Source: Sphagnum compactum (lineage: Eukaryota). From it: a stretch of DNA of 64,000 bases. Where the stretch lies: the NCBI GenBank assembly GCA_965153455.1, contig OZ234493.1, positions 31,238,213-31,302,212 of the forward strand, read 5' to 3'. Of this stretch, positions 5,101 through 64,000 are shown piece after piece. Position 1 is the stretch's first letter. Each line of letters starts with the position of its first letter. The notes under the pieces were generated by a model. It saw nothing but the letters and a program-made list of their open reading frames with translations, had not been told where the DNA came from and did not search any database. The position numbers and the translations under genes are program-made.

Positions 5101-6452
5101 GAAGCATGGCAACATGTGTAAACCGAGTACCTTGCAGCCATACCATTCCCATACTCCAAAAAAATTATACATATCTCCATAACTACTGAGAAATTCTCCA
5201 TGCTTACACTTTATTTCAACCTGAAAACAATTCAGAGAGGACCTAAAAATTAGGTTATAGAGATTTCAGAGGCAACAGCGTAGCAGCAAACATGAAACAG
5301 AAAAAATGGGAACAGGGAGACTCAACCCTTGAAACCAGAGAAAAGACTGAGGAACAGTTCTGGACAACAGCAAGTCACATGCACCACATGCATCACTCAG
5401 TAACCTTCAACTGAGTCCCAGGAAATCAAATTGTGAAATGCTTCTGTTGGTTTCCCAAAGCTTGGGAAGCATGAAACAGCAGAAACAAACTGGGTTGATG
5501 TGCACAACCCACCTTGAGACAACTCAGGATCCTGAATGTCTTGAGAATCTTGAGAAACCTGATCTTGAGAATTAGCTGGGTCAGCCATGGGCATGCCACT
5601 CAGCTCATGCCTTGCTCTTCTTCTTTGTCTTGTCTCACGAACAAAAGCTAAGGCCGCTTTGAAATCCAGACCTGTGCGTGCGAAAGAACAACCAATTGTT
5701 TCCACACTACCAGATTGACCTCTTCGCACCTAGACATCAAGGAGTACATCAACACACAATAACAGGGCACAAAAAGATGTATAATAATTTCACCACAGGT
5801 GTAACAAGCTTACACTTGTAGAGCATTCGTTCAGAAAAAACTATTCGTGAAATTGAACTTCAGGAGCAGCTTGAGCAGCAATTCACTTTCGCCTAGCTGA
5901 GGGTCCAAAAGTGGAACTGAGCAGGATGCTACAATAGTCAGCAGGATTCAACAACAGTGAGAGCCATAGCTAAAGAACCATGTGGTTTAGGGTTCAGGGT
6001 TCAGGGTTTAGGGTTTACCTCTGCAGACAAGGCAGTTCTCACGGACCTCTGGGGTGCGGAGCTTCTGCTTCCAGTTTGGTGGCCTGCCCACACACCAATT
6101 GAAGAAATCAAATGCAATTCTTTGTTGAGCTACATCCTACAGCGTAAGAAAATTGCGCAACCCAATGCTTCAAGACCTGAATCTTCTGGTAGCTAACTCC
6201 CCCACAACATTATTTTATTTTATTTTGCACCCGGATCTGCCGCATGTCGAGAAATGGAGAAAGGAAGACAACGGATCAAGACAATCTTATTCCCATGATT
6301 TGGAATCCAAATACTCAGTAACCTGAACCAAGTGAGAGAAAAGTTCACTCACCAACACGAATGGGTCGCCAGAGCCCAAGATCGAAGACGTATGAAGAGC
6401 GGGAATGCTTGTAAAAGGGCGGCACACTACGACACAACAAACCCACCACCAT
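2116..6452 (-). CDS. ASCC1: ASCC1-like / eukaryotic LigT protein (KH domain + AKAP7-type 2H phosphoesterase), 14 exons, ~459 codons, with an in-frame TGA in the last exon
   Basis: Phase-consistent GT-AG exons: 6452-6353, 6083-6019, 5729-5513, 5044-4944, 4727-4690, 4405-4317, 4178-4111, 3842-3713, 3472-3357, 3237-3172, 3034-2944, 2777-2710, 2530-2490, 2305-2116. Translation gives KH (VDEALMGFIIGKGASTKKQIEADTGAEL), YSHFISIPL, FHLTLLMLKLW (first HxT), LHATLMNT (second HxT) and C-terminal IPFDARE...LSQRFVYDENGYYHCCGSIP. Exons 1-3 are less certain. Premature TGA at 2280-2278. Confidence 0.9.
5986..6017 (+). repeat. Short interstitial telomere-like tract TTTAGGG-TTCAGGG-TTCAGGG-TTTAGGG-TTTA at the start of ASCC1 intron 2
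   Basis: Read directly; it overlaps the GTAAAC donor on the minus strand. Confidence 0.8.
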
Positions 6453-6643
6453 CCTCTCGAAAGAAGCGAGAAAAAACTCGTCACAATCGGCAGAACCTCG
6501 CAGCTCGACGACCGCCGCGAGGCCCACGGTCGAAGCTTGAGCCCAGCGTTTGGCTGCAGCCTGCCGCCCGGGATGTGGCGGTGGCGGGCGGGGCCGCTCA
6601 CCAGCTGCCGCCACCGAGTCGCTGCTCCAACAGATGACATTAA

Positions 6644-6858
6644 ACTAGCCAAGGGTCTTTAAATGCATCCAGTACCAAAAGTACTTCTGCGATTTTTTTC
6701 CCGAGTCTGCCCTTTGCCCTGTCATTTTTCCATCTTGTGATGTCTAGCCTGTTTTGCGATACCAGGCACATGTTTCTCTCATACCCTACCATGTTTTACA
6801 CTCGTAACATACCAGAAGTACTTTTGGTACTGGCTGCATTTAAGACCCTTTGGCTAGT
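6644..6858. mobile_element. MITE (~215 bp) with ~46 bp terminal inverted repeats, flanked by TTAA
   Basis: Left ACTAGCCAAGGGTCTTTAAATGCATCCAGTACCAAAAGTACTTCTG; right CAGAAGTACTTTTGGTACTGGCTGCATTTAAGACCCTTTGGCTAGT. TTAA at 6640-6643 and 6859-6862. Confidence 0.85.
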
Positions 6859-9900: not shown

Positions 9901-12900
9901 GGGTGAGCCTACTCAAGTGAACATGAAAGAATCTTAAAACATATTCCATGCCATGTCATGGAAAATTTTTAATATATTCATCTACAACATGGAAACACCA
10001 AAGTGTAACAGTTGTACCCTTGCAAAGTTATAATAGCTTATGCTCTCTATCAGAGAACATGATCCTTTGTAACCCTAAAAGAATCGTGAAGCAACATTTT
10101 TTTAATTCTCAAAATGTTGCCAAAAAATTAAATAAAAATGTAATAGTTTCAAATTTTAAGGGTTTGAAGGTTCATATTATTGTTTGTTTGTTACCAACCA
10201 TTCATACTTGAAAAATAGCTCTGAAATGGAAATGTTTCTACAAACATGGAACCCACAATTATACATAGATTTAAATATAACAAATTGAAAGGCATGTGGT
10301 AATAATGCATTGTTCCATTTGAAATGGCCCCCATGGCTTTTATTTTATTATGGAAATGTTTTTCTATGGTCTCATTCACATTCATTTAATTGTTGTCAGG
10401 TAGTATGTTTGGTTGTGTCTCTTGGAGAAGATCTATTCTAGATTTTCACTTATGCACACACACCCCTTGGATGTCTTGTGCAAAACACAAGACAAAAACC
10501 CTTTCAAGTCTAACAATTTGCTCCCCATTAATTAGCAAAGTCCCTGAAACAATTCCTTAAAAGAAACATGTTGCACACTTCATGTTTCCCAAAAACACAT
10601 TCCACATTTATTTTTAATCAACAAAGAGTAGCTCATAAATGATCCAGAAGTTCTAAAACAGATGACACCATTTTAGCACAATGTAAAAAAATTCCCTCTT
10701 GTTTCAATTTAGGTTAAAAAGGGTAGCTCATAAATGATACACAAGTTTTAAATATATTATGTGAAAAGCATGTCAACATAACAGTACAACCAAAAAGTTA
10801 TATCATCAACCTTAATCCTTTTGTGTCCAAATATTATTCATCCCATGTCTTATCCCCAATGCTAAATGAACTCATTTGTAATGTAGCTCTACAAACCTTA
10901 CAACCTTGTCTTGTGGAATTCATTCAAATATACAAAAGGAGCTTGGACTAGTCCTTCTCCATGTCGATAACTTGATACAACAATTCTCCATATATCCATA
11001 GTCCGAGATGTTGTTTGTCATTTGACAATTAAGAACCTGACTAACTTGATAAGCACAATTTACACACTGGTGTTATACATACAAAGCAAAATGCACATTA
11101 ATATTCATTTACAAGCTTAGACTTGGAGAGAAAAATGTGAATCTCGACCACATGTTTAGTTTGTTGGAGTTTGGGCAACGGAGGTTCTACCCTTGAACTT
11201 TCTAAATTTTGATTATTATGCCAATTTCATACACTGTACTTAATGCAAGGCATCTTGGGAAGGTTCAATAACCAAATCTTCCCTTCCCCATCAAGAATTT
11301 AGCTAAGTAAAAATCACCTCCAATGGGTAAGACAAAATGATAATAGAATATGAACGTGTAAAGGTATAGATCACACAAACATACTTTAGACACACCTATG
11401 TTTTCCTACATGCAAACTCAACTATATGTTCCCAGTTTGATTGAGATTTAGTTTCACAAATCTATGGACCCTATATCAAGGTAAGAATAATAGATTTCAA
11501 GATTCAATAATATTATTAGTTTATATACAAACTTAATTAAGAAGCCATATATCCATCAATAGCTAATAGCTACAAAATGTACCTAGAACTGTAAACCCAA
11601 AACATAATCTTTAGCCCAACAGTGAAGAGAACAAACTGCTTGCAATGTTCTAACCACAACTAGGCCTAGGTTAAAAGCTCAATATACATTTTGTATTACT
11701 ATCCTTAAGCGGTTCCCAATTCCTGGAGTTTGAACTACTAGCATCTTCCATAAATATATGGGTCTAAACTTTGAGTTTAAGCTTGTTCCCACATCTTTCA
11801 AGCACATGGACATCACCTTGCATCGCATCCTCTATTGGTTGTGTGGAAAGAAAATCTTGAATGTATAAGGGAGGAGTGTGCACAAGGGGTGAACCTAGGG
11901 AATAGGATGAGCTTGGAAAACTCAACAAAGAAACATGTTGAGGGCATGATAACATGATTTCAACACATGTTTCCATCTTTTTTGTTGGTGTTGATCTTGT
12001 GAACATAGTGTTAGTCACCAATTCTTACAATGGAGGTATGCAACCAATTTCTACCAGAACTTGTTGTTTACAAGGGGAACAAGTGAAATGGCATTTTGTT
12101 GGGTGCTATTTGGGATGATATGAAATAACTAGTAAGCATTTTGTTGCTTGATGTTTACTACTCAATAAGGTGTTCACATGCTCTGGAAGGTTAGTTTTGG
12201 TTGCGTGTGGAGAATCACAATGTGTGGCCGACTCATGTTTGATTGCCAGTTCCAGACCTTTAGCAAAAATTAATTCCCCATTTGTGTTGTAAGGCAATGG
12301 AAACCAAGCTAGAAACATCTACTTCATCATGGTGGCAACCACATCTTCCACATCATTGTAGCCCAATTTATTTTATACTGTGTCAACATAGGTTGATTAG
12401 AACATGCAAACATCAACTCTCATAGCTCCCTCAATTCTGAACATAGATCATTCACTTGACCTTCTAGTTTATACATCCGCATTTGTAGTGTAAGCATTTC
12501 CGTTACATCGGACTATTTGCCAAATGTTCAAGATTTCAATACAAGCTTCTACTTGTTTGGAGTAAGAAACAGTTTATGTTTGGGTGTGGGAAATTGTTTT
12601 TCTGAGAATGTTAGATCCATTGTTTCAACTAGCTTGGAACCCAATCGATGAAGGGCATATTGTAATGTAGTAGCTAGTCCTTTGCCCAACTTAGTACCCA
12701 CATGTTGAAGGGAAACTTCTAACACATTTGTAGGAACTTCCACCTCCATTGCATCAAGGGCATCATGATTTCAAGTACCCATTTTAGCTTCATGGGAAGC
12801 TACAATGCATTTGCAACAACTTCCACCTCCATCACATCAATTGCATTCAAGTGTTGGTTGCCCATTTTAACCTCACAAAATCTAGAACCACTTTCACTTC

Positions 12901-13240: not shown

Positions 13241-14694
13241 AGGGTTTTGTTTACTAGCAAAATAATTTTGCCAAATCTCAATGTGAAAAAGTATGATCTT
13301 GACCAAAAAAAGGTCTTAACTTGGAAGAACTAAAATCAAAATTCCTAATTTTTATAAGAAGTTACAATAGGTAACCAATATTATTAAAGGAAACCATTTC
13401 AACTTATAGGTAGCCATACGTAAAACCTAGCCAAAATTGGCATAATTATTTAGTGGATTATAACCACTTTGATTACGTTGGAAAATCCTTAGGAAGAAAC
13501 ATCGTCCTTAGGTGAGGGTATTTGTATTTTGTAAAAAATAATGTCTAGGCTTAAACCCATGCCCAAAATCTCGGATGGGTGTAGGCCTACACCATTTTCA
13601 TTTGTACGAAAAGTCAATCAAATGTTTTTGAACATGCGTAGCTCACAAATTGTAAGATCTCGTTGAGTAGTTGACTAGCATTTTACAAGTTTGTAAATCC
13701 CAAGGAAATCATTCTTGAGAAGTAACCTAAAACTAGTTGCAAAATATGGTTGGTTATTTATGCATGGTAAATTAATGTGGGCCAATAAATCTTGATTAAA
13801 AAAATATGTGCATTAACTTTGTTGTGTTTTAAATTTTGGGAATAAATGTTAGTATTTAAGGCCTCTTAACAAATTATTAAGTAATTCCATGCTACCATTT
13901 TGGGTTAGGGTTGACAATTATGGATGAAAATCCTAGTTTAGGACCATTTTTAGCCATAGTTGGACTCAAACCATTCATAAAGGAAAGAGAATCAAACATG
14001 TGATTCAATTTGCATTGTTGATCGTGGGTTTGCAAATTGGTGTTGTATTTGTGGTATGTTGCCTTTGAGATGCAGCATGAAATCACCCAATGGAACAAAA
14101 GAAACATTTTCCATAAAATTTGTTAATTTCATAAGCAAATTCACATCATAAAAACTAACATGAAACCATCGCATGATATCAATCCCCATAAATGGGCCTT
14201 GAATATCATCATGTGGATCTAGATACAAAATACTCAATAGTTCTACGTTTCTTTCAAATTGTTCAAAATCTGCTTTCCAATTTCCCCCCATGTATTTTGC
14301 CATCCTTATGCCTAATGTTGCCAACAAAAAAAGGAATGGAGTTAATAAAACCATTGTCATCACTTTCATCATGAATGGATGCAATTTTGTTCCATTATGC
14401 CTTTTCAATTCCACATCCAACCTATAGGAAGCTTCACAACATTTTATGTTCCATGCCCTATGAGCCCCAAGGTACAAATAAACATACAAAGAGGTAGTGC
14501 ATGTGCAACAACAATCGATGATGCAAAATCCCCTCACCCTTAGTTTGCAATTGTCCCCTAGTTCGAGTTGATTTTGTGCATCAATACAAATAAACAAATA
14601 TGCCATTCATAAGGCCCTAGTTGACTCCCTTTTGCAACTTTGTGTAACTTTGTTACAAATGAGGACACCCCTCTTCTTGCAAGTATGACATTGT

Positions 14695-15490
14695 TGTCAC
14701 AAGAAAAGGAGAAGAAGAAATGAGGAAAAGAGATAAAAGGGGCTGGAGAAGAAGACCTTCCATCCATTTCAACACAAAGAAACAAGAAATGAAAGAAAAA
14801 AAAAAGAAAAAAAAAAGGGGATCAAATAAGAAGACTTTTCATCTATTTCAACACAAGGAGTCTCTAGAAGGGAAAAAATAGAAAGAAGGAAAAGAGACAA
14901 AGGGGGCCAAACAAAAAAACCTTCAATCCATTTCAACATAAGGAGAAGAAGAAGAAAAATGAAAGAAAGAGAAGGGGCCAAACAAAAAGAGTTTTTGTTT
15001 GTTTCAACACAAAGAAAAGAACACAAGGAGAGAAAGAAAACAAGAGAAAGAAGGAAAAGAGACAAAGGAGGCCAGACAAAATACCTTCTATCCATCTCAA
15101 CACAAGGAAAAAAAAAAAAAAAAAAAAAGGAAAGAGAGAAAGGGGGTTGAACAAAAAGACCTTCCGTCTATTTCAACACAAGGAGGAGAACACAAGGAGA
15201 AGAAAACAACAAGAGAAAGAAGGAAAAGAAACAAAGAGGGTTGAACAAAAAAAACTTATGTTTGTCTAACACAAGGAGAAGGAAAAGAAAAAAAATAAAG
15301 GAAAGAGAGAAAAGGGGCCAAACAAAAATACCTTTTATTTATTTCAACACAAAGGAGAAGAACACAAGGAGAAGAAGAAAATAAGAGAAAGAAGGAAAAG
15401 AGATAAAGAGGGCCGAACAAAAAAAAACTTTTGTCTGTTTCAACACAAGGAGAAGAAGGAAAAAAAGAAAAAGAAAAAGGAAAGGGGGCT
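14695..15490 (+). repeat. Purine-rich minisatellite, ~9 units of ~70-95 bp (TTTCAACACAAGGAGAAG...GGGGCCAAACAAAAA)
   Basis: CAACACA anchors at ~14770, 14848, 14934, 15005, 15098, 15174, 15267, 15344 and 15441. Explains the K/E/R-rich and F/L/S-rich spurious ORFs here. Confidence 0.85.
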
Positions 15491-24585: not shown

Positions 24586-27500
24586 CATTATGCCAAAACA
24601 TGGTTTTCGTGACTTGGATAATTTACGACTACTATTTGATTTTAGTCATGTAGTCATATTTGGATTTCAATCATTATCATTTTTTTGGCTACAACCATTA
24701 TTAGGATTACATGACTATAAATATGATTATACATAATTATATGATTATAATTATGACTAGTAAACATGTTGAACATACTTGACCTTGTTGACCAACTATT
24801 AAAAAAAATAAAATTATGAACATATGGCTAGGTATAGTATAATTTGGCCTAGGTTTAGCCTACTTTAACCTCTACATTGAATTTAAACCTCTAGAATTAA
24901 CTTCAGTTTATCTTTTGAGATTAACCTATATCAAATTTAGTTTATAAATATAATTTTAGTAATTTTATATTGTCCAAGTAACATTGTTTAGTTTAAGTAT
25001 AATCATTAACTTAATTTAACTAGTAACCTAATTTTGCCCTAATTTTGTCGAGGTCACCTATTTTAACCAAAGTTAATCGTAATAGATTAGATTAACCTAG
25101 TTTAGCCTAACCTAATTTAGCCTAAATATTTTAAATTTAACCAAGTTTCACCTACTTTAGCCTTAGTATCCAAGTTTTGCCAAGTTTAACCCAATTTAAC
25201 CCAAGTAACATAGTATAGTATAGTGTAGCCAAATATAGCCAACTTTAACATAATTTAGATTAAGTATACAAACTTAATTATGCCAAGTTTAAATAAATTA
25301 AGCCTAAGTTAGCCTAGGTAACTTAGTTAGCCAATGTGAGCCAAATATATATTATTTTAGACATGCCATCTGCATGTGAAGTTAAACCAAGGTTAGTCAA
25401 AATAACCTATTTAGCCTATATTGCCAAGTTAAACTTAAGGATTCAAGTTTAATTAAGTTTAGCCAAATTTAACCTAAATAACTTAATTTTATTTAACTAT
25501 AGTCAAATTGAATGTAAATAACATAATTTAGCCTAGTTTAATTTATTTAAACCAAGTTTAGCTTAGTAAACCTTCATTTTGCCAAGTTTTGTCTAATATA
25601 ACTTAATATAACTAATTTCAACCAAGTCTAATGTAAGTAACCTACTTTAGGCAAATTTTTTGTTAGTATAGCCTAGTATAGCCAAGTTAAACTTAAATAA
25701 CCTACTTTAGTGAAGTTTAATTTAATGTAAATTAATTTAATTAAACATAGCCTAGTATAGCCAAGTTTAACATAAATAACATACTTTAACCAATTTAGCC
25801 GAACATAGCTTATTTCAACTTAGTATAACCAAATTTAGCTTAATATAGCCTAGTTTAGCCATGTTTAGCTTGGTATAGCCTAATATATCCAAGTTTAACC
25901 TAAATAACATATTTTAGCCAAATTCATTTTAATATAGCCTAGGTTAGTTTAGTTTAACCAAGTTTAATTTAAATAGCCTACTTTAGCCAAGTTTAGTTTA
26001 GTATAACCTAATTTAACCATGTTTAGTTTATAATACCCTAATTTGCATAATATAACCAAATTTAACTTAAATAACTTACTTAAACCAAATTTAGTTTAAT
26101 ATAGCTTAATTTAGTCATGTTTAATTTAATATAACCTACTATAACCAAGTTTAGTCTAGTGTAGCCTAGTTTAGCTAAGGTTAAACCTAAATAATTTAGT
26201 TTAGTCCAAATAACCCCAAGTTAAACTAGGTTACCTAGGTTTAGCCTAGGAAGATCTAGATTTGTTTCAAATCGCCTATGGAGGCCTAGGCTGAATTATT
26301 GGGTGGACTAGGTCAACCTAGGTCAGCCTAAGGTGACGTAAGGTGACTTAGGCAAAAAAAATGTTATATTGTATATGTTCAAGTGATAATTACATTTGTT
26401 ACAAAAAAAATGTGGTGGTGCAATGGTAAAGGATTTGGCCCCTCAATGTAGAGGTGAGGGGTTAAAATCCTTTTACCTTTGTCTTATATACTACCTAAGT
26501 TCCTAAGAGTATAATTGGGTTAATTTCCCCAAGAATTTTGTGGTTAATTTAGCCAGGGTTGCTTTTTAATCTAGGTTAGGTCCCAAGCGTTTTTATTTGA
26601 TAAAAAATTGATTGGCACGTGGCATCATATAATTGGTAGGAACCATGGTTTAGTACGTAATATTGTATATATTAGTAATTAGTATTATAAGTATCAAATT
26701 AGGTAAAATATTTCATATTTAGAAAAATTATTTTGTTAAATATTATTATAATCGTTTATTATAATAAAAATCTAAATTTTTAATTTAAAAATGAATATGA
26801 TTAAAAATAGTTTAAAAAATTTACTTCAAAAATTACATAATTTAAATAAAATTTTAAATTATGATTTTAGATTATAAATAAGTAACCTATAAATATGTAT
26901 TTCAATTTATAATTATTTAACTAAATATATTTATATTTTAATAATAAAATTATAAATAACATCAATTTTATATTAAATACATTATGTTTTCCTAGATCAT
27001 TCAAGAATTACATAATATTATAAATATATAAAACTAAAATTAGATACAATGAAAATAAGGAATTATTTATTTTTAATTATAAATTTATTTCAGTAAATAA
27101 TAATATTAATTTCTTGATTATTAACTATTTAATTAATAATTTTTAAAAATATTTGATATCAATTTGATATTAAATATATTATGTATTGTCTAATAATTTT
27201 AACATTAAATATTTTTGTATTTAATAAATATTATATAGATATTATATCATAGATATATACTTAATAATAGGTACTACCTACTACATACTAATTATATTAA
27301 GGTATACACCTAATATGTATTTATACACTTGGTAAATACCTATTAGGTTTGTTTTAGATAATAAACTAGGTTAACTATTGGAAAGCAAGTTAGGTTAATT
27401 TAGGTAGTAGGTTAAGCTATGTATAATTAATAAGTGGATCCTAACTTAATAGTTAATAAGTTAGTTGATAGATAGTAGATTAGGTTAAGTATTAACTCAT

Positions 27501-44819: not shown

Positions 44820-47800
44820 CACGCGTAGCCAAGGACTACTATATTTAGCAGGGTGTTGCGACGAGAATGTAAGCTGAACAAGTCTTAGTCTTACTCTTTG
44901 CCTATTTAAGAAGAGGAAGAGCTTTATGTCGTTGCACAGTGGGAGGAATTTCCTTTCTTTGACAACGTTGAGGGATGTTGCACGACTTGACTTGGGGTGT
45001 ATAGTCTTGCTTTCACAACGTTCCTTTCTGTTCTCCAGCTTGTCAGAGTTGCTTTGGCATTCCATGTCGCCACTTTTTCTCTTCTTTCTCACATCCTGCA
45101 CTGTTGGCTCCTTGTATTATTCTGAACAATTCTGATTTTTTGAGCTTTTTCTTTGTCTCTCGCTTGCTGTAGCTTTTCACTCTTGTTTCTTGGACATTTT
45201 ACACCCTTGGAGCACGTCGGCGCCTGTTTTGTGTGTTTGTAATAAATTGATTAGATCTGTCTTGGCGAGTGGCTATGAAAATCCATTCTTGTATGTAGAC
45301 AAATCACTTTCTGGTTTTGATAGCTCGGTGGAGATTCTATGAAATTCGTCCAACTGTGGTGTAGGTTCTTGAATGCCTCGTGTGAATTGGTGTCCTTCAA
45401 CTCTGAAATGAGCACTGATCACGAGTAGAATGTGTTCAATTTTGATCCAGTTAGCCTACAATATTGAAGATTGCTAGGATTTATGCTTTGGACACAATCA
45501 TGTACGCGAGTTTCGTCAACGATCAGATGGGATCCATCAAGACTGGTAAGGAGTGGTTGGTGACAACGAGAGAGAGCACGCTCGAATGCATGTATTCTGG
45601 AATTCGCATACCTGTGTTCTTGCGTGTTCTCTCCCCTTGTCACCAAGTTCTTTTCGATTTCTAGCTTTTGGTTTTCCGCTTCAGGTACTACTCTTTGAGT
45701 AGTAATTTATGCTTCAATGTAGTCATTAAATTTTTTTAAATCCCATAATGTTCATCACCTTTGAGCATTTGGGAGAACTGGTTTGTGGAACTTTTACAAA
45801 ATTGTTCAGGTTTGCTCATTGGTACTTGAGCAATGCGTGATACATTTGTAGGTCAATTTCTGATCCATCCATTTATCTGGACATGTGTTGTACTACAAGA
45901 GGCTAGTTATTGTGCATTTGGTCGCTAGTGCTAACCATTACGAGAACCTATTTCATGAATTACATTGACCATCGATGTTAGAAGCATTGTATGCGAGCTG
46001 CGGTATGAGAATTTGTACATAGCACACCCCGGAAAGTCTGACATAGTATGTGGGCAATGCCTTGCTAAATTTATAAATTTCATAAGTAGCTATTTTCTTC
46101 TTTTTAGATTGCAACTCTTCCTGCTTGGAAGTTTGACCATGATCTCAATAACAAGGAACTCTACAAGACTTGCAAACTATATGAATATGGCGTTGACGAG
46201 CTAGATGTTTTCATAACATGTTTTCATCACGTTTTTTAACATAGACTTGTCCACAATTGGTTCATTCTTGGGTACTGATGTATAAACACCATTTGCTGAC
46301 CTGTTTCCCATACTTGGTGGTTGGTGTTGTATACTTAAAATTGGACATGAGATTTCCATTGGAGGAATTTTGAAACTTTAAATCAGAATCAGGAATGCAT
46401 CTTTTACTGCTTTTTGGATTGGAGTCTAGAATGTATCTTTTAGTCCTTTTTCAATTAGAGTCAGGAAAGTATGTTTTCCTCCTTTTGCAATGGGTTGCAA
46501 TTGGAGTTAGGAATGTATATTTGAGGCTGTTCTCAATCAAAGTTTGAAATTGAACTTCAAACGTTTATGTTTCACTTTTTACCACAACCATGATCGCTGA
46601 CATCAGTAGTGTTCGTGAACCGCGGTTATGGCATAACACAGTATATCTTCTTGAAAATGAATGGTCTGACAATGTGTGCCTACACAATTTGTTCATAGCA
46701 TGCGTTATTATGCATGTAATTTCTAAGTCCTAGCTCCATAGTTGATGTCTTTAGCACAAATGTTTGTGTACTTGAATTTGAGTGTGAATTGGCAGGTTGA
46801 AGACAAAAGATTGGACTAGAATCCTTCAAGTTTCAATTCAGCAAACTTCAGCAATGTCTACATACATTTTGTTCTCCATTTTATCCAAAAAGGTGATCAC
46901 GTGCAATACTATATATGAACAGCTCCACTGAGAACTTCATTTGTTCTCTTGGGTGACCCTTGGAGCCTAGGGCCAAAGAAAGAGTGTGGAACTTCAAAGT
47001 AGGCACCTGCAGATTGGCAGTATTCTTTTGGTGTGTTGTAGCTTATACGTTTCCTTCTTTCTAGCATAGCCTAAGCTTCTAGCCCTGGCAATCCCTATAC
47101 ACAGTAATGTGTCTGCAAGTATAACTAGGAAAGTGCATGGGAAGAAGCATTTTGTAGAGCTAATCCTGCAGGTTAACTATGGTCCAATAAATCATTGAGA
47201 TGGATGTTGAGATTTGAAGAAAAATGTTTTTTAGGAGATTGGTACGAGTGCTGGTTGAGATACCTTCACATCCTGGATCGCTATTTGCAAGTATATATGC
47301 TCCTTAAGTTCTCCATGGGTGGAGCATCAATCTCTTGACTTATGTTCATGATATATGTGGATTGATCTTCTCAAGTACCTTTCTGAAATATTTGTACACT
47401 ATAACAAATCTACAAAAGTATTGCACCCATACTAATACATATGGTGTGAGTGTCTAATGAACTAAATTTTATTTGCAGGGTCTCGTCATGACGGTACTTG
47501 GAGAGATCCCCCCATGAAGATGCAACATTACAGGCTCTAAAGGATCTGATTAACTTTGAGCCCCTTGGATGGTGGACCCACATGCATGTAGAACTTTGAA
47601 GATTGCATAAAGTTCACGAGGATCATCCCTTGTCAAAACTAGATTGTTAAAATTGTTGAGCGTTCTTGCATGATCTTATCAACTTGTTTCTTTCTAGGGA
47701 GTTGGTGTCACGCAATCTATTTATTAACCATGCATCCAAAGAACAACTTTGGTCTCCTCTCATTGGGTGGAAAAGATTGAGAATATAGTACAGAATAATA

Positions 47801-47870
47801 CTGGAGAGGTATAATCCAAAATCTAAACTCTCCTTTAAATTGGGGGGAATTCAGATATGAAAAAATAACG
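44820..47870 (-). pseudogene. Decayed multi-exon gene of unknown family, including copy 2 of the duplicated exon (47480-47870)
   Basis: 47480-47870 translates PQFKGEFRFWIIPLQYYSVLYSQSFPPNERRPKLFFGC...LRDTNSLERNKLIRSCK. Downstream, higher-GC coding-like tracts with stops and a GT-AG intron (45611-45403) lead into a K/E/S-rich frame. Linkage of these parts is inferred. Confidence 0.4.
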
Positions 47871-49123
47871 ACTCAATCTTCATAATAATGACATGGCATG
47901 CTATATGCCAACAAAAATTATGTGGTCCTATTTGTCAACATCATGATTCATGTGATTGATTTGGTGAATTAATTTCATTTATTAGCTAGTTGAAAATATT
48001 GTTGTCTTTTGTAACTAATAAAGACTTGATTTTCCATGTGACGATGACATGGCATTTGGCAACAAGGTGTCACAAATTTTCATGACAATTCATGTTTTTT
48101 TGTGACACCACAAGTTTTTGTGTCTCGAATTTATGGCACCAATATTTGTCATGGCATGCCATAAATTTTTGTGGGTCATGAAGTTTTTGAAGTTATGAAT
48201 ACAATGTAATTGACAAATATTACAAGTGGTTGAATTTACAAGAAACTTGCATATACATATTACACAAAAACTTATACAAGAAAAAATAACTTGTAAAATA
48301 TGCAAATTACATATACACATTTTAAGTTTGTTCAAATCAAATTCATGAATTGGCACAAAGAAATAAAATATTTTTTATTCATCAAGACAAAATAAAATAC
48401 CCATATGACATATACTTGAAATGTGCAACTTGGCATAAAGGGATTGAAAGGGTTGAAAACACACATAAAATAAAAAACATAAAACTCCAACATGAACACA
48501 ACAAGGAACTTATGTATGGTGGCTTGAAACAACTTTCCAATCTCAATAAGCAATGTAATTACTTATTTAAAGAAAAGTTGTACCTATAAATCTAACTGTT
48601 TTTACACCAAGGCAAGTGCATATTCCCAACAACATTTGTGCATTTAATTATAAATGAACACAAAAAACAAAATGGAAAAAATTAATTTTAATCTACTAGT
48701 TTATTAAAAAAATCATTTATTTGGTGACCATTAATGACATGTCTAGCAAACTTAACCTTTTTTGGGTCATGTGAATTGAATACAACCCCAATGATTTAAT
48801 GAATAAATTTGCAATTTGATCTTTTTCTAAAAATGTATATCAATTTTATTTTGTCATTTTAAGTTTTTTTTTAATGTCCTGATGTTTCATATGGGTGATT
48901 GCACATTAAGTAGTTCATTTTTTGGTGTCACAAGGGGTTATATTCAAAAATCGTACTAGTATGTAAACTTTTTTAACATATTGAAATGATAATGTTTCTA
49001 ACATGTTCTGAAAACATGTGGAATAATTTATAACATGACTTTAATGAAGATAGAATATTCAAAAGCACTCATCTTACAATTTTTTATTATTTAATTAATC
49101 TTTTAAATGGACTTAATAATGGG

Positions 49124-49529
49124 ATGAAAACACATTAGGGAAGGCCAAGATTATTGTCACATTGTATTTTTTTCAAAGGTACCATGTTTGAACTTCAACC
49201 ATGTCATTATTATGAAGGATTTTTACAATGTTTTTGCATACCATGGTAAATCAAAACCTAAGAAGTCAAATGCCAAATATATTATTTTTCTTATTTCATC
49301 TGATGTCATGTTAAAATATATTTGTGCAAAAAAATATATCATCACAATGTACTAAAAAAATCCAACATATTCAAAAGATGATTGAAATGATTTTTAATCT
49401 TTATGAAATGTGTAGTATGTACTAAACATTGGGATTTTTAATTACGGGGATAGGTTTGTGAAGCATGTGAAAAGTTTGGTAATTATCATATCACAAATGG
49501 ATTTTTTCAAAGGTGATGACCATAAGTAT
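49124..49529 (+). repeat. ~400 bp direct repeat, copy A (copy B at 52838-53225)
   Basis: Shared CATTGTATT, CCATGTTTGAACTTCAA, CATGTGAAAAGTTTG.TAATTATCATATCACAAATGG and GGTGATGACCATAA. Confidence 0.8.
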
Positions 49530-50259
49530 CAATACACAACATGAAAATCTACAAGTGCATAAAATTAGCATTATCACTTGTCACTTAACAAACATGAATA
49601 TTGCATCCATTTCCATTATCTTATAACAAAGGTTTCAACATATAAATTGCAAAGTTTGGCACTGATGGTATTCAAATTTAAACGTTGTAATAATGTTGAG
49701 TGCCATCATGTAATAATGATAAAAGTTAGTGAAATTAATTATATTTTTCAAACAATGTTGTGGCAATTCTATTTGTAGGGGTAGCACACTATGAATTTGT
49801 TGCAAATTAATATAACTATTTGGAGAAATTTACAATATTCATTTTGTTTGCAAATAATAGTTTATAGAATAAAATCCCTTGGTTCAAGTTTTCTACAAGA
49901 TGAATCCATGTTTGACTCAATTGTTAATTGAAGGTTAGAATTTGTTTAAAAACAATTATTTATCAAAGTCATAATTCCCATTAGTTGTTCCCGGTCCAGG
50001 TTGCTTAGGTCCCAACTGATTTTTGGTCATAGACCCATGTCCACATGGTGACCAAAATCAGTCGCATGTTGGATAAGGTTCAACGACTGAAATCACTAAT
50101 GAGCTAGATAGGGTTGAGTGCACCAATAAATTTTAAAAAGATAATGTGAACTCCAAACTTGAATTAAATTGAAATTTGTATGCACTTTATTATAGATTGG
50201 GAATGTCCATATAATCCATTCTTTCCTATGTTACGATTATTGAAAAATGTCATTAAACC

Positions 50260-51000
50260 CTAACCATTATAAATCGTAATCACTATGCTGATCGCCAACA
50301 ACATTCTTTTGGTGGAATCCAATTGTCCATAGGTATAAAAGAGCTCCGGTGCCACCCACCATCGAAGTCGTCATTGAGTTGCAGTTTCTTCTTTTATCGC
50401 ACATCCATATGGGGATGGGTTATCCTCCCCTAGCTTCCTAGCCTCCCCCCAATCACACACACCAATGTATATAGCAGAAAGGTTGTCCAATGGAAAATGC
50501 AACATGATGTTGTCTTGTGATAAATCATTATGCAATGTCCTAGATTATTGGATTACATTCATGATGCACAAAAGTGCCCAAGCTAGTTTCACTCGTGTTC
50601 GTCTAAATATCATGAGACATTGTCAAGACTCAAAATCCAACCCTCCCCCTTGCAAAAGCCCCCAATTGTCGAGGGATTGATTTTGGCTATTGTGGTACCC
50701 CAACATCTTCCGAAGTGTGCTTCCGTTCCACCACAATTGGTATGCCTCCATGGTTTTTGCATGGATGGCATAAAACTTTATGACACCCGGATGATCAATG
50801 GAACAAGCCAATGCCTCCATAGAAAATTGACACCGGGCCTCATAATTATCCTTAGTTTTTAATTTTTTGCCAACAAACTCAATGTACAAAGGCACCCAAT
50901 CATAGTTCTTAATCCACACTTCGCGAATTTTGCCATTTCCACCTTGCTAACTTAGACCATTCAAAGCAAGCACAATGGTGGCAGATGATGGCACCCAATT
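50260..51000 (-). pseudogene. Intronless divergent protein kinase domain relic, transposon-embedded
   Basis: One frame carries QGGNGKIREV (G-loop), EFVGKK (beta3 Lys), SMEALA (alphaC Glu), HPGVIKFYA, LHNDLSQDNIM (catalytic loop), GVCDWG (DFG equivalent) and WWVAPELF. Four in-frame stops; no frameshift between the G-loop and APE. Confidence 0.85.
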
Positions 51001-51904
51001 ACCCTTCGTCCTTGTGCTTGGCTCAAGTTTGCTTTTGCCCCTTCTCTGCCCATGAAAGCAATCATGTTTTACTTTTGGCAAAACTTTTGGACCAACCCAT
51101 CCACCATTTCACCTTCTCATGCAACAAACAAATTTAGGGGGAGGAATCTTCTTTCAATGGGTAAATTATTGACACCCATTGCACCAAGTTGAAAGTAACA
51201 TCCCTTAGTTTCAAGTCCTCCCATCCTGAATAGTCCTTGCAATTACGATCCTCTTCAAACTCAGGGGCTTTTAAATCTTCCTAATTTTTTTTTTGCATGG
51301 TCATCCTGTATTGATCAATCCCTTCCAATTGAAAATTAGCATATAACATTGTCAAGGTAGCTTATCCTTCTCTAAGAGGAAGTTCATCATAACATTTTGC
51401 ATTACCATAGTGGCCTTTGGATTGGGTTAGTTTTCCTTTGCAACCTTCTACTTCTTATGAGAAGATTCTTTAGAAATTGACCCAATTCCAAACTCTTTCT
51501 CCTTTGAAGATTCTTCTCGGAGGCACTTGGATGAATGGTTTCAAGAAAATTCTTGGGTTGGATGTTTACAAATTGAATCATACATGTTGCCCATTCACCT
51601 TGACTCCCTTCACCCACAACCTTCACCTTGGAAGCAACAATTGGTAGAAGCAATCACAATCTTGCAAAGTTGAAGCAATCAGGCAAAGGAGCCTCGTAGT
51701 ACGTTGTGTCCTTAGCCTTCTTTCCCAACTCTCGTGTTGCACCCAAGTTCGTCACATTGATGCAAAGAGCAACCAAAGATTAAGAACCCACTGTGGCAAA
51801 CATAGAGAGGTGGAAAAGATGATACAATAAGATGGTAAAGGCCAATTTATATTCAGGTTTGATTCTATTGAGGAACTAGAGTTTACACTTTCCCATCATT
51901 CTAA

Positions 51905-52550
51905 TGCGATCGAATTTCAATCGCAACCTTTCCACAAAACAACCAAAATTTGGCCAACACCACTTGGACATGCCTAGTTGTTCAAGGGGTTGACCAAAAT
52001 TCGGTCACACTCCTTGGACAAATTGATAGTTACCTGGATAGGGGTGGATAATTTCGATCATTCTTGGATAGGGGTTATCACTCGCTAGGGCGATTGAAAG
52101 TCAATTGCATTCCTTAGTCAATGCTGATCATTACCTAAACATGGGTGGACAATTTTGATTGCATTCTTGGACAAGATCGATCGCTTGTCCAAGTGACTGA
52201 AATTCAGTCACATTCATGGATAGGGGCAATCACTACTTGGACAAAGGTGGACAAAGTTGATCGCATTTGTGGATAGGGGTGATCGTTTCATGGACAAGGG
52301 TGGATAAATTTGGTTGTATCCCTACACCTAGACAAGGGTAATCTCTACTTGGACAGGGGTGGACAAATTCGGTTGCATTCCTGGACAAGGGCGATTGCTA
52401 CTTGGATAGGCGTTGACAAATTCGGTCCATCCGTGGATAAGGTTAAGTATATTGCAACTGAATTTCAGTTGTGATTTGGATGGTTGATATTAGTCACATG
52501 ATGTAACAAATCGTTGAGGTCAATGTAGTGGATTAGATGGGCGACTAAGA
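51905..52550. repeat. Subterminal-type repeat array (~35-55 bp units: GGACAAATTCGGTCGCATTCCTGGACAAGGG / GCGACYGAAWTTCRGTCGC palindromes)
   Basis: More than 10 TGGACAAGGG/TGGATAGGGG motifs. A related motif cluster sits at ~49990-50095, on the other side of the kinase. Confidence 0.75.
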
Positions 52551-52837
52551 TCTCTCTATTTATAAAAAAATCCAACAAAGTTTTCTCATTGTGGCATTAA
52601 ATGGTTTCATCATTTAATGTTCTCTTAATTCTTCAACCAAGAGTGCATGTGTTGGCTCCACATGGGTTTTTTTAACATAGTCCACACATGTTATGTTGGC
52701 AATAGTAACTATTTTACCCTTGATACAAAAATTATTGTACTCAATATAGGTTGACCCTAAACTAATGTGATGCAGGGTTGCGTCGATGTCTAAACAAACA
52801 TGACTAACATGACGTGACAAGGCCAGTGTTGATAACC

Positions 52838-53225
52838 ATGAAGCACATTATGGGGGGCCCAAAATGTTGTTGCATTGTATTGTTTTCCAAAGGTGTCCAT
52901 GTTTGAACTTCAATATGGTAATTTTGGAGCATATTTTGCCCAACGTTTTACATCATATGGTAGAGCATAACACAAAGAATTCAATTGAAAAGAAAATTAC
53001 TTTTTCCAACTTATATTGTGTGATTCCAAAGTATATTTGTGGCTAAAAAAATGTCACTATGTACAAAAAAATGCAAATATACTCAAATTAGTCTTTATGA
53101 TATTTGTTTGGTATCTATTAAACATTGTGATTCTGTATGATTGGAATAAATTTGTGAACCATGTGAAAAGTTTGATAATTATCATATCACAAATGGGTGT
53201 TTTTGGGGGTGATGACCATAATTAT
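52838..53225 (+). repeat. ~400 bp direct repeat, copy B
   Basis: Colinear with 49124-49529. Confidence 0.8.
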
Positions 53226-53817
53226 GTGATAACTTAACATTTTGAGAAACTATCACTTTCAAATGGAAGATGACAAGATATGTGAGGTGGGCCATTTTTT
53301 AGATTTTCATTTCAAATTTTTTTTGGCTGATTAATATATTCAAACCTAAATTTAGTGTAATCCAAAAACAAAAACAAGTTTTATTATATTGCATATACCA
53401 TAAATAGACCCATTATTCCTTGAATTTAATTTTTTTAAATTTATTTCTTTTTTTCAAATAATATTAAATATCATTAACTTTGTGAAAATCAAAATATCAA
53501 GCCCAAACACCAAAAGTGTAACCCAAAATTACATACATACATTACATACATGTCGTGAAAATGCCCAAAGTGGCCCCCCTATAGTGTGCTTTCATTTAAT
53601 GTGGGTTGAATTTCCATAGTCGTATCTTGGGTTTTGGACTTCATACGTTTGATCTCATTTTGATTTCACATCTTAAGCACCCTAAACCTCTAAAGTCACA
53701 TGTTTAAAATTTATGAAGATGTTTTCCAAACCATGGATTATATGAAAGTTTTTCAAAGTTTAAAACATCAAAGGTTAATGCACATTTTGGTGGAATCATT
53801 TTTCTTAAATATAACTA

Positions 53818-56615
53818 CATTATGAAAAAAATGGGTGTTTTACAACTGGCCTTGCAACTCATTGTATTTATATGTTATGAGTTTTAATGGACAAGTTGTA
53901 TGAGCTACAAAGTTGCAACTCACCGTGTATATAGTGCAATTCACTTCAACTCAATTGCAACTCAATCAAAACAACCCATTTTCAACTATTATTCAACTCC
54001 ATTATAACTACACCCACGATGTCATGTTGATGTCATTAATTGTCATCCATTTATTAAAATTTAACTCGTGGCATTATGAAGATTTTTGGACATTAAAAAA
54101 ATTTCAAAATATTGATCTCCATCATCCGTTATAACTGTTAATGATAGTCCGAAATTACAACACGTGGCATAATAAATTTTTTTGCCACATGGCATATTAA
54201 TTGTATTTTGGAAAAAATATAAACTATAAAATACTTATTTTAATAGCTAGCTAAGTCATAAATAACCATAGGTGTCGCAACCCTAGCCTTGGGCTCGCGA
54301 CCAAAGCAAGGGGTTGCAAGGTTGCGGGCCAAGAGGCAAACCCGGGAGTCACGTCGCATGCTCCTGGGAGTGCAAGAGAGTGTGAGGGAATAGACCCTCA
54401 CACTCCCAAGGGAACTCCCACTTTGGGAATTAAAATTTCAGTGGACTCCCGAATGTTCAGAGAGCGATTGCAGGGGTCAAAACCCAATGGATTGAAGAGT
54501 TCTTTATATCATTAGAAAGCTATTGAAACTTAAATATCTAAAATGGGCTCGCATGACCCATTTGGACATTTGAAACACAAGTTATGGCCAAAAGAAAGGC
54601 CGAGAGTCAAGACCACTAAAAGTCAGGAATCGACCTAATTTCCTTGCGTGTAGGTCAAGTGCGACATACTATTGGAAAGCTCTCAACAAGGGCTATAACT
54701 TTTCCTCAGACCTCATCTCAATCGAAGGTTTGCACACAAAGTTATGAGCCCCCAAAGTCGCAAGAGTCCCAACTTTGGCAATTTGGGGACTCCCACTTGG
54801 GAGTCTCGGGACAAAATGTCATTTGGATGTGGGCCTCGTGGAGAGGCACAGAGTATACTATAAGGGGGAAGGTGGTGGTTTCCCCCAAGTCAGGCCGTGG
54901 TGAATTTTGTGAGTTTGAGTTTGCCCGTGTCTTGTCCTAGCACCAAAAGTGCTTCAACTATGCACTAACCAACTTGTTGTTTGGTTTGTGCAGATCCATG
55001 TGAGTGATTAAGTGCTTGTCATTCTTCTTAGTCCCATCCCAGAGCTCCAGCATGCCCCTCTACCCCCAAAGTGCTGCAAGCTAGGGAACGTGCCCCAACT
55101 CCTTACTCTTCTGTTGTTTTCTATTTGGACTCACATTTGAGTCCCTCAAGGAATTGGGAGTGCATCAATAGGTGGGTAGGTTGGTAGGTTTTAAAACCGA
55201 CATACCTACATATTTACCTAGGACCTACCTACCTACTTATTTAGGTATAAAAGTAAAACCTACTTACTTACCTAGGTAGGTAAGGAAGTAAGAAAACACA
55301 AGACTAAGTGCATAAAAGAATAGCCATGAAAGTTTATTTTTTATTTTATGTTTTACCTTTGGGTTAAACTGTTTTCAATTCATCCCAAAATGACACATGT
55401 ATTTTAATGTGAGAACATAAAAGAACAAACTTTTTTTATATAGTTTGTAACATGGGATTCGAAGACAAAACATATGGGTTAAATTTTTTAATTGTTCATT
55501 AGTTGCAATTGAATTACAACTATAACACTTAAGCACTTAAGGTCGGCCGAATCCAAAGGGAAGGTTCCATTATTTTTGGCTTTGAACAAAACTTGAACCC
55601 CTCTTATTGGTGCATCTAATGCACTAAAAATTGTCAAAAATGGAATAGAATTGAGAAAGTTATGGTCCTTTAAAATAGAGGGGTCAAGAACTCAAAAAAT
55701 AAACTTCCAAATGCTACAAAGGCTGAATCCCAAACACCCACAAAATTCCTTGTATGTCGTTTTATTGTTGGTAGAGTTCAAAAATAATTTGTAAAATTTT
55801 AGGCAGTGCTCCTATAACACTTTAAATTGTTTTAAATGAATAAGAAATAAGAAAGTTATGAAGTTTGAAAGTATGAGGTGTTTCAAAAAAAAAAAAAAAG
55901 GTGTTTTGTAAGTTGGAAAATTTACTTATTTTCTTGTTATTTTTTCATTACTCATTTTCCTTTGCACTTCAAAACAGATTTCTAGAACTTGAAATAATGT
56001 TCCCAGAACATTTTAAATCACTCAAAATGAAACACATGTGATGAAGATATAAATAACTAATGAATATGTATCCTTATTAATTTATATGTAGTTGTTTTAT
56101 AGTCATAACATAGTTGAACATTAATACTTTAGTGGTGGTGCACTAGTGGCCATACTAATTGTATCAATGGGAATCAAAATCAAAACTAGTTACAAATGTA
56201 TCCCATAATGGGTGGTGGAGATGTGGACACGTGGCATAATCGCATGTATGTACATTGTACACTAGTTGCAACATAATTATTATTTTAATGACACATTTAT
56301 AATATTCTAAAATAATTACTTCATGCAATTGTAATGCAACTCCTAAAAAAATCAAACATGGTTGACTACATATGTATATACGATGTGTATAAATTACCGT
56401 ATAGAAGACCCATTTTCAACTCACTTGCAACAATAATACAATTAACCGATTTTCTGATGTGGTAATTTATTTACTAATACAAAGTATTTCTAAGGGGATA
56501 ATTGCACAATAGTTGTAATACCCAAGGGATAGTTGCATAATAGTTGTATACTAGTTGTTTTTTGAGTTTTAGTTGCAGGGTAATGTGGTTTCAGCGGACG
56601 CGATTTCTCATAGTG
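53818..56615. mobile_element. Non-autonomous CACTA-like element hosting a solo LTR
   Basis: Ends CATTATGAAAAA...TTTCTCATAGTG; TGCAACT repeats on the left and AGTTGCA/AGTTGTA on the right; 3-bp flanks CTA/CAA. Confidence 0.65.
54273..55167. mobile_element. Solo LTR (895 bp) with perfect 5-bp TSD
   Basis: Begins TGTCGCA and ends TGCATCA (TG...CA). ATAGG at 54268-54272 and 55168-55172. GC is sharply higher than the flanks. Confidence 0.9.
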
Positions 56616-58019
56616 CAAATGCATCTGGATTTTATAACCAAAGACATTATGTTGTTATATATAATATATATATATATAGACATGACATCCATAAAAGTCC
56701 ATTATACTATGTTTTCACCCTAGAACTATTATACAAGTTGTAAACACTTACCCAAATGTAAGCTATTCACCATCTAGCATTAATTGCATTTTACAATTTG
56801 ATGTTTTACTGCTTTGATAGATCCTGTTTTTATTTTCCTCTTTGTTTGTTTATTTTAGTGCTTGCCATTTTATTTTTCTTTTATCAAATTTTGATTTTTT
56901 GTTTGATTTTCTTTTGGGTTTTGTATTTAGATTCATAATAGAGTATAATAGTTTAATAAAATTTGGCCCCTAGGTATTGGGTCTATTTTTGTATGTAGTT
57001 TTTAAAAAGATGATGTTTTGGCTTGTTTTGAAACTTGAAATTAGTTATAGAGTAATGATATCTTGAAGATTTTAGTTTCTTTTAGAGGAATTTTTTGAAG
57101 ATTTCTGCATGGTGAAATATTTGAATTTCTATAATTCTTTTTTTGCTTTAAGATATTTTTAAATGTAAATGGTAAGGCCACAGTGTGACATACCCTTTGT
57201 TTACATTCCTTTGGTTTTATTTGTTAATGCTTGGTCAAGATCATGATTGAATTAAGGATCATTGTTTATAAAATCATGATAGAAACTAAAGATTCAAAAC
57301 TTTGTACAATAATTCCCCAAAACATTTGCACCCATGTACATTAGAAAGTGATGCAAACAATTGAGAGAATTTTGGTGTTGTTATAGTTTGTGTAAGTTAG
57401 ATGCATTTGTTTTGTAGTTGTGGGCAAATGAATTTCTTTTCTTAAAAAGTTTCAATGGAGAGAAGACTTTGCAATCAATAATTTTGTTAAGTTTGGGGGT
57501 GTAAATGTTATGTATCATAATTATCACATGCCAACATATGTTTTGTTTATTGGGATTACATCAACTTTAGTAAAGGGTTTTTTTTTGCCATGTCTAAAGG
57601 TATTGCATGATCTTCCATTTCGAACCGTAGATGATGTAGTTGACTACATTGTAATGTGACCTTGGAGACAAGTTTGTTCATATTTATAAACATATGTGGT
57701 ATCTAATATGCAAAGTGTAGTTTAGATTCTATCATCATACTTTGTCCAACATTGTGACTTATGCAAATGTTTCTAAACATTTTGGGTTGCAATTTGTGTG
57801 TATGCATGTATTTCTAGAAGTTGATTTGGTGTTTATTTTTAGCACATACTTGTTGTGTGTATGTGGATGAACTTTCATTTTGGCTAGTGCAAGGCCTATA
57901 CATATAATACAATATTCTAAAGTTTAGGTTGTACAAATTATAGACAAATCTAGTTGATGGTAATGCCATGTCATCTTACATATAATCAATGAATCAAGTT
58001 AGTCATATCAAACCAACCA

Positions 58020-63651: not shown

Positions 63652-64000
63652 TTATGACTCCTCTGTTGGCTGAGTGATGCCAAATTTGAGAAGCAACTTG
63701 TTCAAATCATCAGCAGAACAGACCTGATACTTGACATCTCCTAGTGGGCTCAGACTGATTTCAGCAAGCTCCAGTTTCTCAGAGGAGAGAGTGGTGCTGT
63801 CCATGGTTTTACTAAGGACCTTGAGCGCCAACTGAACTGCTTCCTCTCTGCTGATATCATCTTTGTAGTCCTGTTTCAGCATGGATTGTGCAGCTTGATT
63901 GTTTGCACCTATGGCTCCTGCTTTCCAGCCACCATAATTCCCACTAGGATCACTCATGTAAAGCTGGAAACCGAAGTTGTTGTCATAACCTGCAAACAGG
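63652..64000 (-). CDS. PAC1: 20S proteasome subunit alpha type-4 (alpha3), 3' part; continues beyond the window
   Basis: [46 protein letters not shown]...[22 protein letters not shown]; stop at 63654-63652. Confidence 0.96.

Follow-up and report, generated by a model that had tools for sequence, protein, structure and literature searches.

A decayed kinase gene inside a Sphagnum compactum mobile element of probable hAT affinity

DNA transposons that carry selected genes in addition to a transposase are, to our knowledge, few, and each of them is informative about the dealings between an element and its host. VANDAL elements of the Mutator group encode the anti-silencing protein VANC, and TBE1 elements of ciliates have a zinc-finger/kinase-like open reading frame (ORF). 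In both cases a DNA transposon encodes a non-transposase protein that is presumed to serve the element, and for a kinase-like ORF, TBE1 would be an earlier example. Here we analyze a 64,000-nt stretch of Sphagnum compactum DNA, called the window below, in which the remains of a protein kinase gene lie within a mobile element on the minus strand. All window coordinates are positions in this stretch. The element differs from VANDAL and TBE1 in both superfamily and host. Retention of a kinase under selection is uncommon among transposons, and no description of such a kinase-carrying element was found in the open-access full-text literature.

The closest described systems are hAT elements of the Ac/Ds type. 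The family to which the window element belongs resembles them in its short terminal inverted repeats, its subterminal repeated motifs and its many internally deleted non-autonomous derivatives, as well as in a transposase with a DUF659 RNase H-like domain and weaker signals of the BED and hAT-dimerisation domains. Unlike them, it carries two extra conserved genes, for a RING-finger protein and for the kinase; its subterminal motifs are palindromes of about 19-24 bp together with a 53-bp tandem array, and the 8-bp target duplication is not confirmed. Another comparable case is a fungal DUF659-bearing hAT element with histone H3-like copies, where the passenger gene was amplified along with the transposon (PMC6710886). 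That passenger is a captured housekeeping gene, whereas the kinase considered here is known only from element-like, multi-copy contexts and has diverged under constraint across subfamilies.

The region that ends at 52840 on one side and at 49998 or 49885 on the other is probably a dead, internally deleted copy, devoid of transposase, of a hAT-superfamily element whose full form is about 11 kb long and has three genes; its host is a land plant with an AT-rich genome. Membership of the family in hAT is probable, not settled. We observe a repeat family with defined ends and transposase remnants linked to it, and a kinase protein that has conserved residues and has long been under constraint. The full element would have a terminal inverted repeat of 14 bp (CAAGGTTRTCAAMA) at either end and, internal to these, subterminal arrays of short palindromes, and would encode first a hAT transposase, then a small RING-finger protein and then a kinase protein of about 450-500 aa. 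The latter would have a basic N-terminus, a helical N-terminal domain of no assigned fold and a divergent, catalytically complete kinase domain (HND...N, DWG). The palindrome arrays presumably bind the BED-type transposase of the element. Kinase-only derivatives, the window copy among them, would keep both ends and the kinase cassette and would be moved in trans by the transposase of full copies. We infer that the three genes form one element mobilised by a cut-and-paste mechanism. An accessory role of the kinase is the one that we favour, speculatively: alone or perhaps with the RING protein, it would benefit the element; possible phosphorylation targets are the transposase and host factors of silencing or repair.

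In a scan of metagenome contigs we found 80 related loci (L numbers below), which dereplication reduced to 49 groups. Intact ORFs are present in 11 groups, all on short contigs with a guanine-cytosine (GC) content of 0.43-0.51. The decayed groups number 38; 33 of these have GC content below 0.40, and none of the 33 is intact. The low-GC contigs hold plant genes (LOB, TAXi_N, bHLH), and the nearest ESM Atlas cluster is mostly Streptophyta. The window sequence from 50122 to 52840 matches several independent plant-like contigs at 77-86% DNA identity, and in four independent contexts the similarity ends at the same point, 52840. A repeat family with shared ends thus supports the view, put forward in an earlier note made from the letters of this stretch, that the kinase belongs to a kinase-encoding mobile element present in multiple copies, of which this one is dead.

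A second, commoner subfamily, whose core measures about 3.3 kb, was found in at least 12 independent loci and has a sharp 3' end. A block named S lies 0.4-2.3 kb (mostly about 0.5 kb) downstream of the kinase in 20 dereplicated loci. It is followed by palindromes of the GGTGACC-A/T-GGTCACC type and then, about 180-240 bp further, by the terminus. On the other side, the core of this sister subfamily meets three different upstream flank classes at one junction. Its 3' terminal block was also sought in the loci of the window's subfamily, where only the palindromes matched.

All five copies of the window's subfamily, and L067 as well, have the 5' end of the family, CAAGGTTATCAACA. At the 3' terminus, ...TTTTGACAACCTTG was observed in 10 dereplicated loci, and the flanks are unrelated in seven of these. 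Since CAAGGTTGTCAAAA, the reverse complement of the 3' terminus, matches the 5' terminus of the window's subfamily, these ends constitute terminal inverted repeats of about 14 bp, as short as those of hAT elements; for the window copy itself the 3' repeat is only a weak candidate. The 14-mer of the 5' end opens the element, with at most two mismatches, in L042, L029, L019, and L054. In L046 both ends surround a kinase-only unit of 4.65 kb (7159-11811), and palindromes follow directly after the 5' repeat. The window element is larger than first delimited, and its parts are as follows, from its 5' end.

52827 to 52840, minus strand: 5' terminal inverted repeat, CATGGTTATCAACA in the window copy, exactly where similarity to the four independent sister loci stops.
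52476 to 52826, minus strand: 5' subterminal unique region, alignable with sister copies.
51900 to 52475, minus strand: degenerate tandem array of units of about 53 bp with palindrome-type motifs such as GTGACTGAATTTCAGTCAC, found by self-repeat comparison and motif matches.
51035 to 51361, minus strand: remnant of the N-terminal helical domain of the family (tblastn, residues 15-126 of P0010), in a frame different from that of the kinase.
50263 to 51108, minus strand: kinase domain frame, from ORF reading, Pfam and homologue search; the tblastn homology spans 50997-50308.
50326 to 50333, minus strand: site of a deletion of about 250 bp by which the end of the kinase gene was lost; L041, L011, L010, and L060 have 241-271 extra bases here.
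50122 to 50325, minus strand: conserved 3' non-coding stretch, 84-86% identical to L041, L011, and L060 and 80% identical to L078.
49998 to 50117, minus strand: 3' subterminal palindrome region with GCGACTGATTTTGGTCACC and ATGACCAAAAATCAGTTGG, matching L078 5627-5745 and L042 6639-6716.
49885 to 49898, minus strand: candidate, weakly supported 3' terminal inverted repeat TTGTAGAAAACTTG, aligned with seven 3' ends of the sister subfamily, which is not an independent test.

The 3' end is accordingly placed at 49998 or, less certainly, at 49885. The array at 51900-52475 comprises the repeat families D1 and D3-D5 and the inverted pairs I1, I13, and I14. Tandem Repeats Finder recovers only two small pieces of it in the window, and in the sister copy L019 the 53-bp units form a clean tandem array. 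With a loose palindrome pattern we obtained four strict matches in the 64 kb (50050, 51908, 51992, and 52195) against an expectation of 2.3 for the whole window, and all four lie within the element. Scans for perfect palindromes gave almost nothing, being too strict for decayed copies. The match at 50050 lies on one side of the kinase gene and the other three on the opposite side, in agreement with the earlier report of the same palindromic repeats on both sides. Because sister copies share the non-coding flanks and the motif matches all fall inside the element, the flanking repeats are parts of it rather than neighbours.

Two other repeats were seen around elements of this subfamily. A direct repeat of about 420 bp with 73-80% identity brackets the window element (49124-49545 and 52841-53260). 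Its upstream copy begins at the base directly after the 5' inverted repeat, and the other one lies about 340 bp past the candidate 3' end. Its length exceeds that of target duplications, and related loci lack it. In L019, a kinase copy of the window's subfamily lies between the arms of a large inverted repeat (646-2933 versus 14634-11981, 72-87% identity) that abounds in tandem sub-repeats.

The window contains a single kinase copy, according to tblastn with proteins of the family. Its frame (51108-50263) has four in-frame stops, at codons 50949-50947, 50625-50623, 50547-50545, and 50373-50371, and the motifs HNDLSQDN, CDWG, WWVAPE, GGNGKIREV, and EFVGK; we read GGNGKIREV as the putative glycine loop and EFVGK as the putative lysine motif. 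One minus-strand kinase frame with HND, DWG, WWVAPE, and four stops had been noticed before, and we find the same. The Pfam family Pkinase (PF00069) matches this copy with an E-value of 1.4e-5 and 25.1 bits, below the cut-off of 31.7 bits, and the best sequence matches among solved structures are MAP kinases (E 0.04). A word-indexed search returned 33 homologous proteins at E<=1e-3, the best at 1.4e-65, and many of the database homologues have a precomputed PF00069 annotation. Full-length homologues are 390-500 aa long and share the motifs HNDLSPxNIMLHFP, IGVCDWG, and WVAPELF.

The N-terminal homology at 51361-51035 reads in another frame than the kinase, thus at least one frameshift has occurred in the window gene. 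EDLKAPEFEEDRNCKDYSGWEDL in this remnant corresponds to the conserved GDEW.EDR..W region of the family. About 750 bp of decayed N-terminal coding-like sequence had been proposed upstream of the kinase; the part at 51361-51035 is supported by this homology, and the rest is not shown to be coding. In addition to the deletion at the end of the kinase gene, the window copy has a second one of about 410 bp at 50117/50122 relative to sister copies (L042); the earlier note mentions neither. Despite the decay it retains EFVGK, HNDLSQDN, and CDWG.

Among 15 intact members of the family, there is no variation at K215, E234, H330-N331-D332, and D355-W356, and conservation at N337 and G357 is 90% or more. 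The VAIK lysine, the alpha-C glutamate, the HxD aspartate, the asparagine, and the DxG aspartate are therefore all present, and by these residues the kinase appears to be catalytically complete and divergent (HND, DWG). It is like the eukaryotic protein kinases of PF00069 in its fold and in the catalytic K, E, D, N, and D, and unlike them in having HND for HRD, LSPxN for LKPxN, and DWG for DFG. It also has its own helical N-terminal domain of about 150 aa, and most members score below the Pfam cut-off: the intact ORF of L013 reaches 36.1 bits against the cut-off of 31.7, and other relatives have 27.6-28.5 bits. An AlphaFold (AF2) model of the L014 ORF, with a predicted local distance difference test score (pLDDT) of 76, consists of a helical N-terminal domain (27-143), a disordered linker and a protein kinase fold. 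The kinase part of the model matches PINK1, FGFR2, and ULK1 in Foldseek (E about 3e-7). The N-terminal domain folded alone (pLDDT 73) had no informative match, with a best VIA-align Z of 4.7 to helical bundles and a best Foldseek E of 2.5; a new fold does not follow from this lack of a match. Basic sequences such as MPKGKKHK and KRPSKRPR form the N-termini and may act as nuclear localisation signals.

A profile search against 1.84 billion representatives gave 812 matches at E<=1e-3, of which 362 have E<=1e-10 and 84 have E<=1e-30. Among the best 150 of the 812, 20 are at least 380 aa long and 130 are shorter, i.e., fragments. The longest of these 150 has 647 aa, so no fusion of the kinase with a transposase is seen among them.

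Selection was assessed by Nei-Gojobori counts on codon pairs guided by tblastn. Compared with other subfamilies or intact relatives, the window copy has a proportion of nonsynonymous differences (pN) of 0.32-0.45 and one of synonymous differences (pS) of 0.61-0.81, mostly saturated; for the other subfamilies by themselves pN is 0.33-0.44 and pS, at 0.74-0.81, is saturated. Within the window's subfamily the ratio of nonsynonymous to synonymous rates (dN/dS) is 0.53-0.65, and for L078 it is 0.31. These values fit subfamilies that diverged as working genes and then decayed after insertion.

To look for a transposase, stop-to-stop ORFs upstream of the kinase in four related loci were scanned with Pfam. 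DNA located 3-8 kb upstream of the kinase is common to 5-10 other groups. DUF659 was found there in L058 (80.9 bits, E 1e-22) and L067 (54.8 bits, E 1e-14; cut-off 34.7), and more weakly in L062. DUF659 is described as the RNase H-like domain of plant hAT transposases and often occurs with the hAT dimerisation domain (PMC3985635). The catalytic domain of a hAT-type transposase is thus present in related loci and not in the window. In L067 the signals follow in the order BED, DUF659 and hAT C-terminal region, as expected of a hAT transposase, and the hAT-dimerisation stretch of L035 is conserved in L058, L062, L039, and L067 with 51-73% amino-acid identity. With the DUF659 piece as a query for longer proteins, only fragments of 220-328 aa were returned.

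The same Pfam scans revealed a RING finger in the upstream regions of L058 and L035, and the RING gene lies between the transposase and the kinase. With tblastn, we located remnants of the transposase upstream of the kinase and on its strand in L058, L067, L035, and L039. These are four of the 18 low-GC groups whose upstream sequence is 7 kb or longer; six of the same 18 have RING remnants. L062 has a reversed transposase remnant downstream of the kinase. L058 and L035 are collinear and almost equal in their spacings: the distance from the transposase to the U module is 1320 and 1301 bp, and that from U to the kinase unit 2406 and 2452 bp, respectively. A RING module of about 1.45 kb (L056 7153-8603 and its counterparts) is forward in L039, L062, and L067 and reversed in L058, L035, and L021. 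Its occurrence in either orientation indicates inversions inside the element. L067 has TAAGGTTGTCACAA at position 1002, upstream of the transposase, and the 115 nt or so that follow are alignable with the 5' end of the kinase-only subfamily of the window (the first part of the region 52476-52826). It is mainly because L067 shares this 5' repeat and the following stretch with kinase-only copies that we read the transposase, RING, and kinase genes as one element of about 11 kb, of which the window copy would be a deletion derivative.

Alternatively, the kinase cassette might be a self-contained element with terminal inverted repeats or a repeatedly captured gene moved by some other mobiliser, and the transposase and RING remnants upstream might come from neighbouring or nesting elements. 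The absence of transposase remnants from 14 of the 18 testable loci agrees with this, as do the three upstream flank classes that join the sister core at one junction and the commonness of internal inversions and nested insertions (a repeat of the type R, described below, is found in the 3' end of L056 and beside L078 and L024-26). However, the inverted repeat at the start of the transposase-bearing L067, and about 115 nt of subterminal sequence next to it, are those of kinase-only copies, and order, strand, and spacing recur in L058, L035, L039, and L067. Besides, no such remnants occur downstream on the same strand or in the 64-kb window. We regard a separate cassette as unlikely.

A number of observations weigh against a single three-gene hAT element. 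The hAT-dimerisation match (Dimer_Tnp_hAT, PF05699) at L035:1433-1756 has 18.4 bits and E 0.0019, below the cut-off of 21.4, and the zf-BED match at L067:1409-1615 has 15.1 bits and E 0.024, below the cut-off of 20.6. No transposase or RING remnant was found in the window by the ORF Pfam scan, six-frame reads of the flanks, and self-comparison; these scans agree with the earlier statement that no transposase is visible there. Transposase remnants are kept only in the four of 18 testable loci, all of them decayed, the long copies differ by internal inversions, and DNA rich in transposable elements can juxtapose unrelated ones. Since the remnants are few and decayed, the inversions internal, and a chance juxtaposition possible, the single element with three genes is inferred, not proven. 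The 8-bp target duplication, a hallmark of hAT, was not seen: flanks agree in 2 of 8 positions in L046 and in 3 of 8 in L056, L067 flanks agree in 0 of 8 at one end and, compared by eye, in 4 of 8 or 6 of 8 at two other ends, and the 8-mers flanking the window element do not match on by-eye reading. The copies checked for target duplications are old, about 20% diverged. The 3' inverted repeat of the window copy is weak. Finally, the pN and pS values come from protein-guided alignments of pseudogenes, which favour conserved stretches and bias pN downward, and are rough.

Repeat arrays were also observed next to the intact genes. In L014, L023, and L032, GC-rich arrays of CCGTCCGATCGG-type repeats lie directly upstream of a TATAAGG/TATAAAG box, and GGCGGACGGCTCACTTTTT follows the box about 150-200 nt before the ATG. 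In L013, arrays of GTCGACTGC...GCAGTCGAC palindromes are present on both sides of the intact ORF of 544 aa. Judging by these sequences, repeat arrays accompany the kinase gene across deep divergence, and they may have a double function, as promoter elements and in protein binding. In L014, a contig of 7.7 kb, the same CCGTCCGATC array (113-520 and 4819-5038) precedes an ORF of 361 aa (692-1774) and the kinase ORF (5239-6729); these are apparently two genes with one promoter type on a single contig. The 361-aa ORF belongs to no Pfam family, and neither this second ORF of L014 nor other flank ORFs have copies in other loci. In L003, the segment 1-128 recurs at 3175-3302 with 98% identity, i.e., with a period of 3174 bp, and an intact kinase ORF runs across the junction, which suggests tandem copies or a circular form of this intact relative.

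If the element were a relic of an endogenous large DNA virus or a virus-like element, the arrays would be viral promoters. Intronless genes, each with its own promoter of a repeat array and a TATA box, would suit this origin, and so would the second, unrelated ORF of L014 behind an array of the same type; a giant-virus kinase cluster ranks tenth among feature-based look-alikes, which is a lead only. However, there are 0 relatives in 2.9 million viral contigs and no viral hallmark domain in any flank scanned, and the small units of 3-5 kb end in inverted repeats and have a transposase linked to them. A viral origin is highly improbable.

The earlier note had assigned the element to CACTA/CMC, with the kinase as a passenger. 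Subterminal repeat arrays, both direct and inverted, are characteristic of CACTA (En/Spm) elements, and the family described here has arrays in both orientations. However, its ends read CAAGG.../...CCTTG (CAAGGTTATCAACA and TTTTGACAACCTTG), not CACTA or CACTG, the linked transposase remnants carry DUF659, and Transposase_21 (TNP2-like) has no Pfam match in the window ORFs scanned, the six-frame flanks, or the upstream regions of the four related loci. No matching flanks of 2-3 bp, the length of CACTA target duplications, were seen, such duplications being too short to judge at decayed ends. We thus abandon this assignment as scarcely credible. An ordinary processed or duplicated host-kinase pseudogene beside unrelated repeats deserves as little credence: it would account for an intronless, decayed gene, but about 1.7 kb of non-coding 5' and 3' parts is shared with independent copies up to a common terminus, and the 80 loci fall into 49 groups in which every intact one has a GC content of at least 0.43 and 0 of 33 low-GC ones are intact. 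The number of groups and the flanks common to sister copies likewise contradict a single-copy, intron-containing host kinase without the repeats, which the earlier note had named as the opposite outcome.

Within the preferred reading, a probable hAT element with a kinase gene, a bolder proposal seems to us possible and rather doubtful: rather than cargo acquired by chance, the kinase may be the founding member of a lineage of transposon kinases long kept by hAT-type elements, forming a regulatory or counter-defence module with the RING E3. Such a lineage would have its own promoter arrays, a nuclear N-terminal domain possibly reading the palindromes, and a partner RING E3. The module would phosphorylate and ubiquitinate the transposase or host silencing and repair factors, and the intact relatives in GC-richer organisms would be active elements. 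Apart from this proposal, a hAT-type family that has kept an atypical, complete kinase and a RING gene through many subfamilies would be a new case of a transposon with extra selected genes. It would provide a testable system for the action of the kinase on the transposase and on host silencing or repair proteins, and for binding of the palindromes by the N-terminal domain. It would also explain the "orphan" intronless kinase fragments called by gene predictors in plant genomes; 130 of the best 150 matches are shorter than 380 aa.

Beyond the element, the window contains other traces of repeats. A fragment of the sister subfamily stands alone:

56921 to 57194, plus strand: isolated piece of S, the 3' region of the sister subfamily, with a match of about 77-82% to the block found downstream of the kinase elsewhere.

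A sensitive self-comparison of 46500-49130 with the element gave nothing convincing. A repeat of about 900 bp, R, beginning with TGTCGCAACCC, occupies 54273-55168. It is an insertion relative to L066, where the counterpart of window 53840-54209 adjoins that of 55176-56615. Elsewhere R occurs inside or beside the ends of kinase elements, in L056 about 97 bp from the 3' end and as inverted pairs in L078 and L024-26, which suggests a target preference for these ends. Blocks of tandem repeats with periods of about 80-160 bp lie at 14699-15489 and 25524-26211. Two host-gene signals were obtained from the 29 window ORFs scanned with Pfam (the longer ones of the 49 with at least 90 aa), both on the minus strand: a weak GYF-domain ORF at 13995-14606 and an exon of a proteasome subunit at 63655-63999 (E 8.7e-20).

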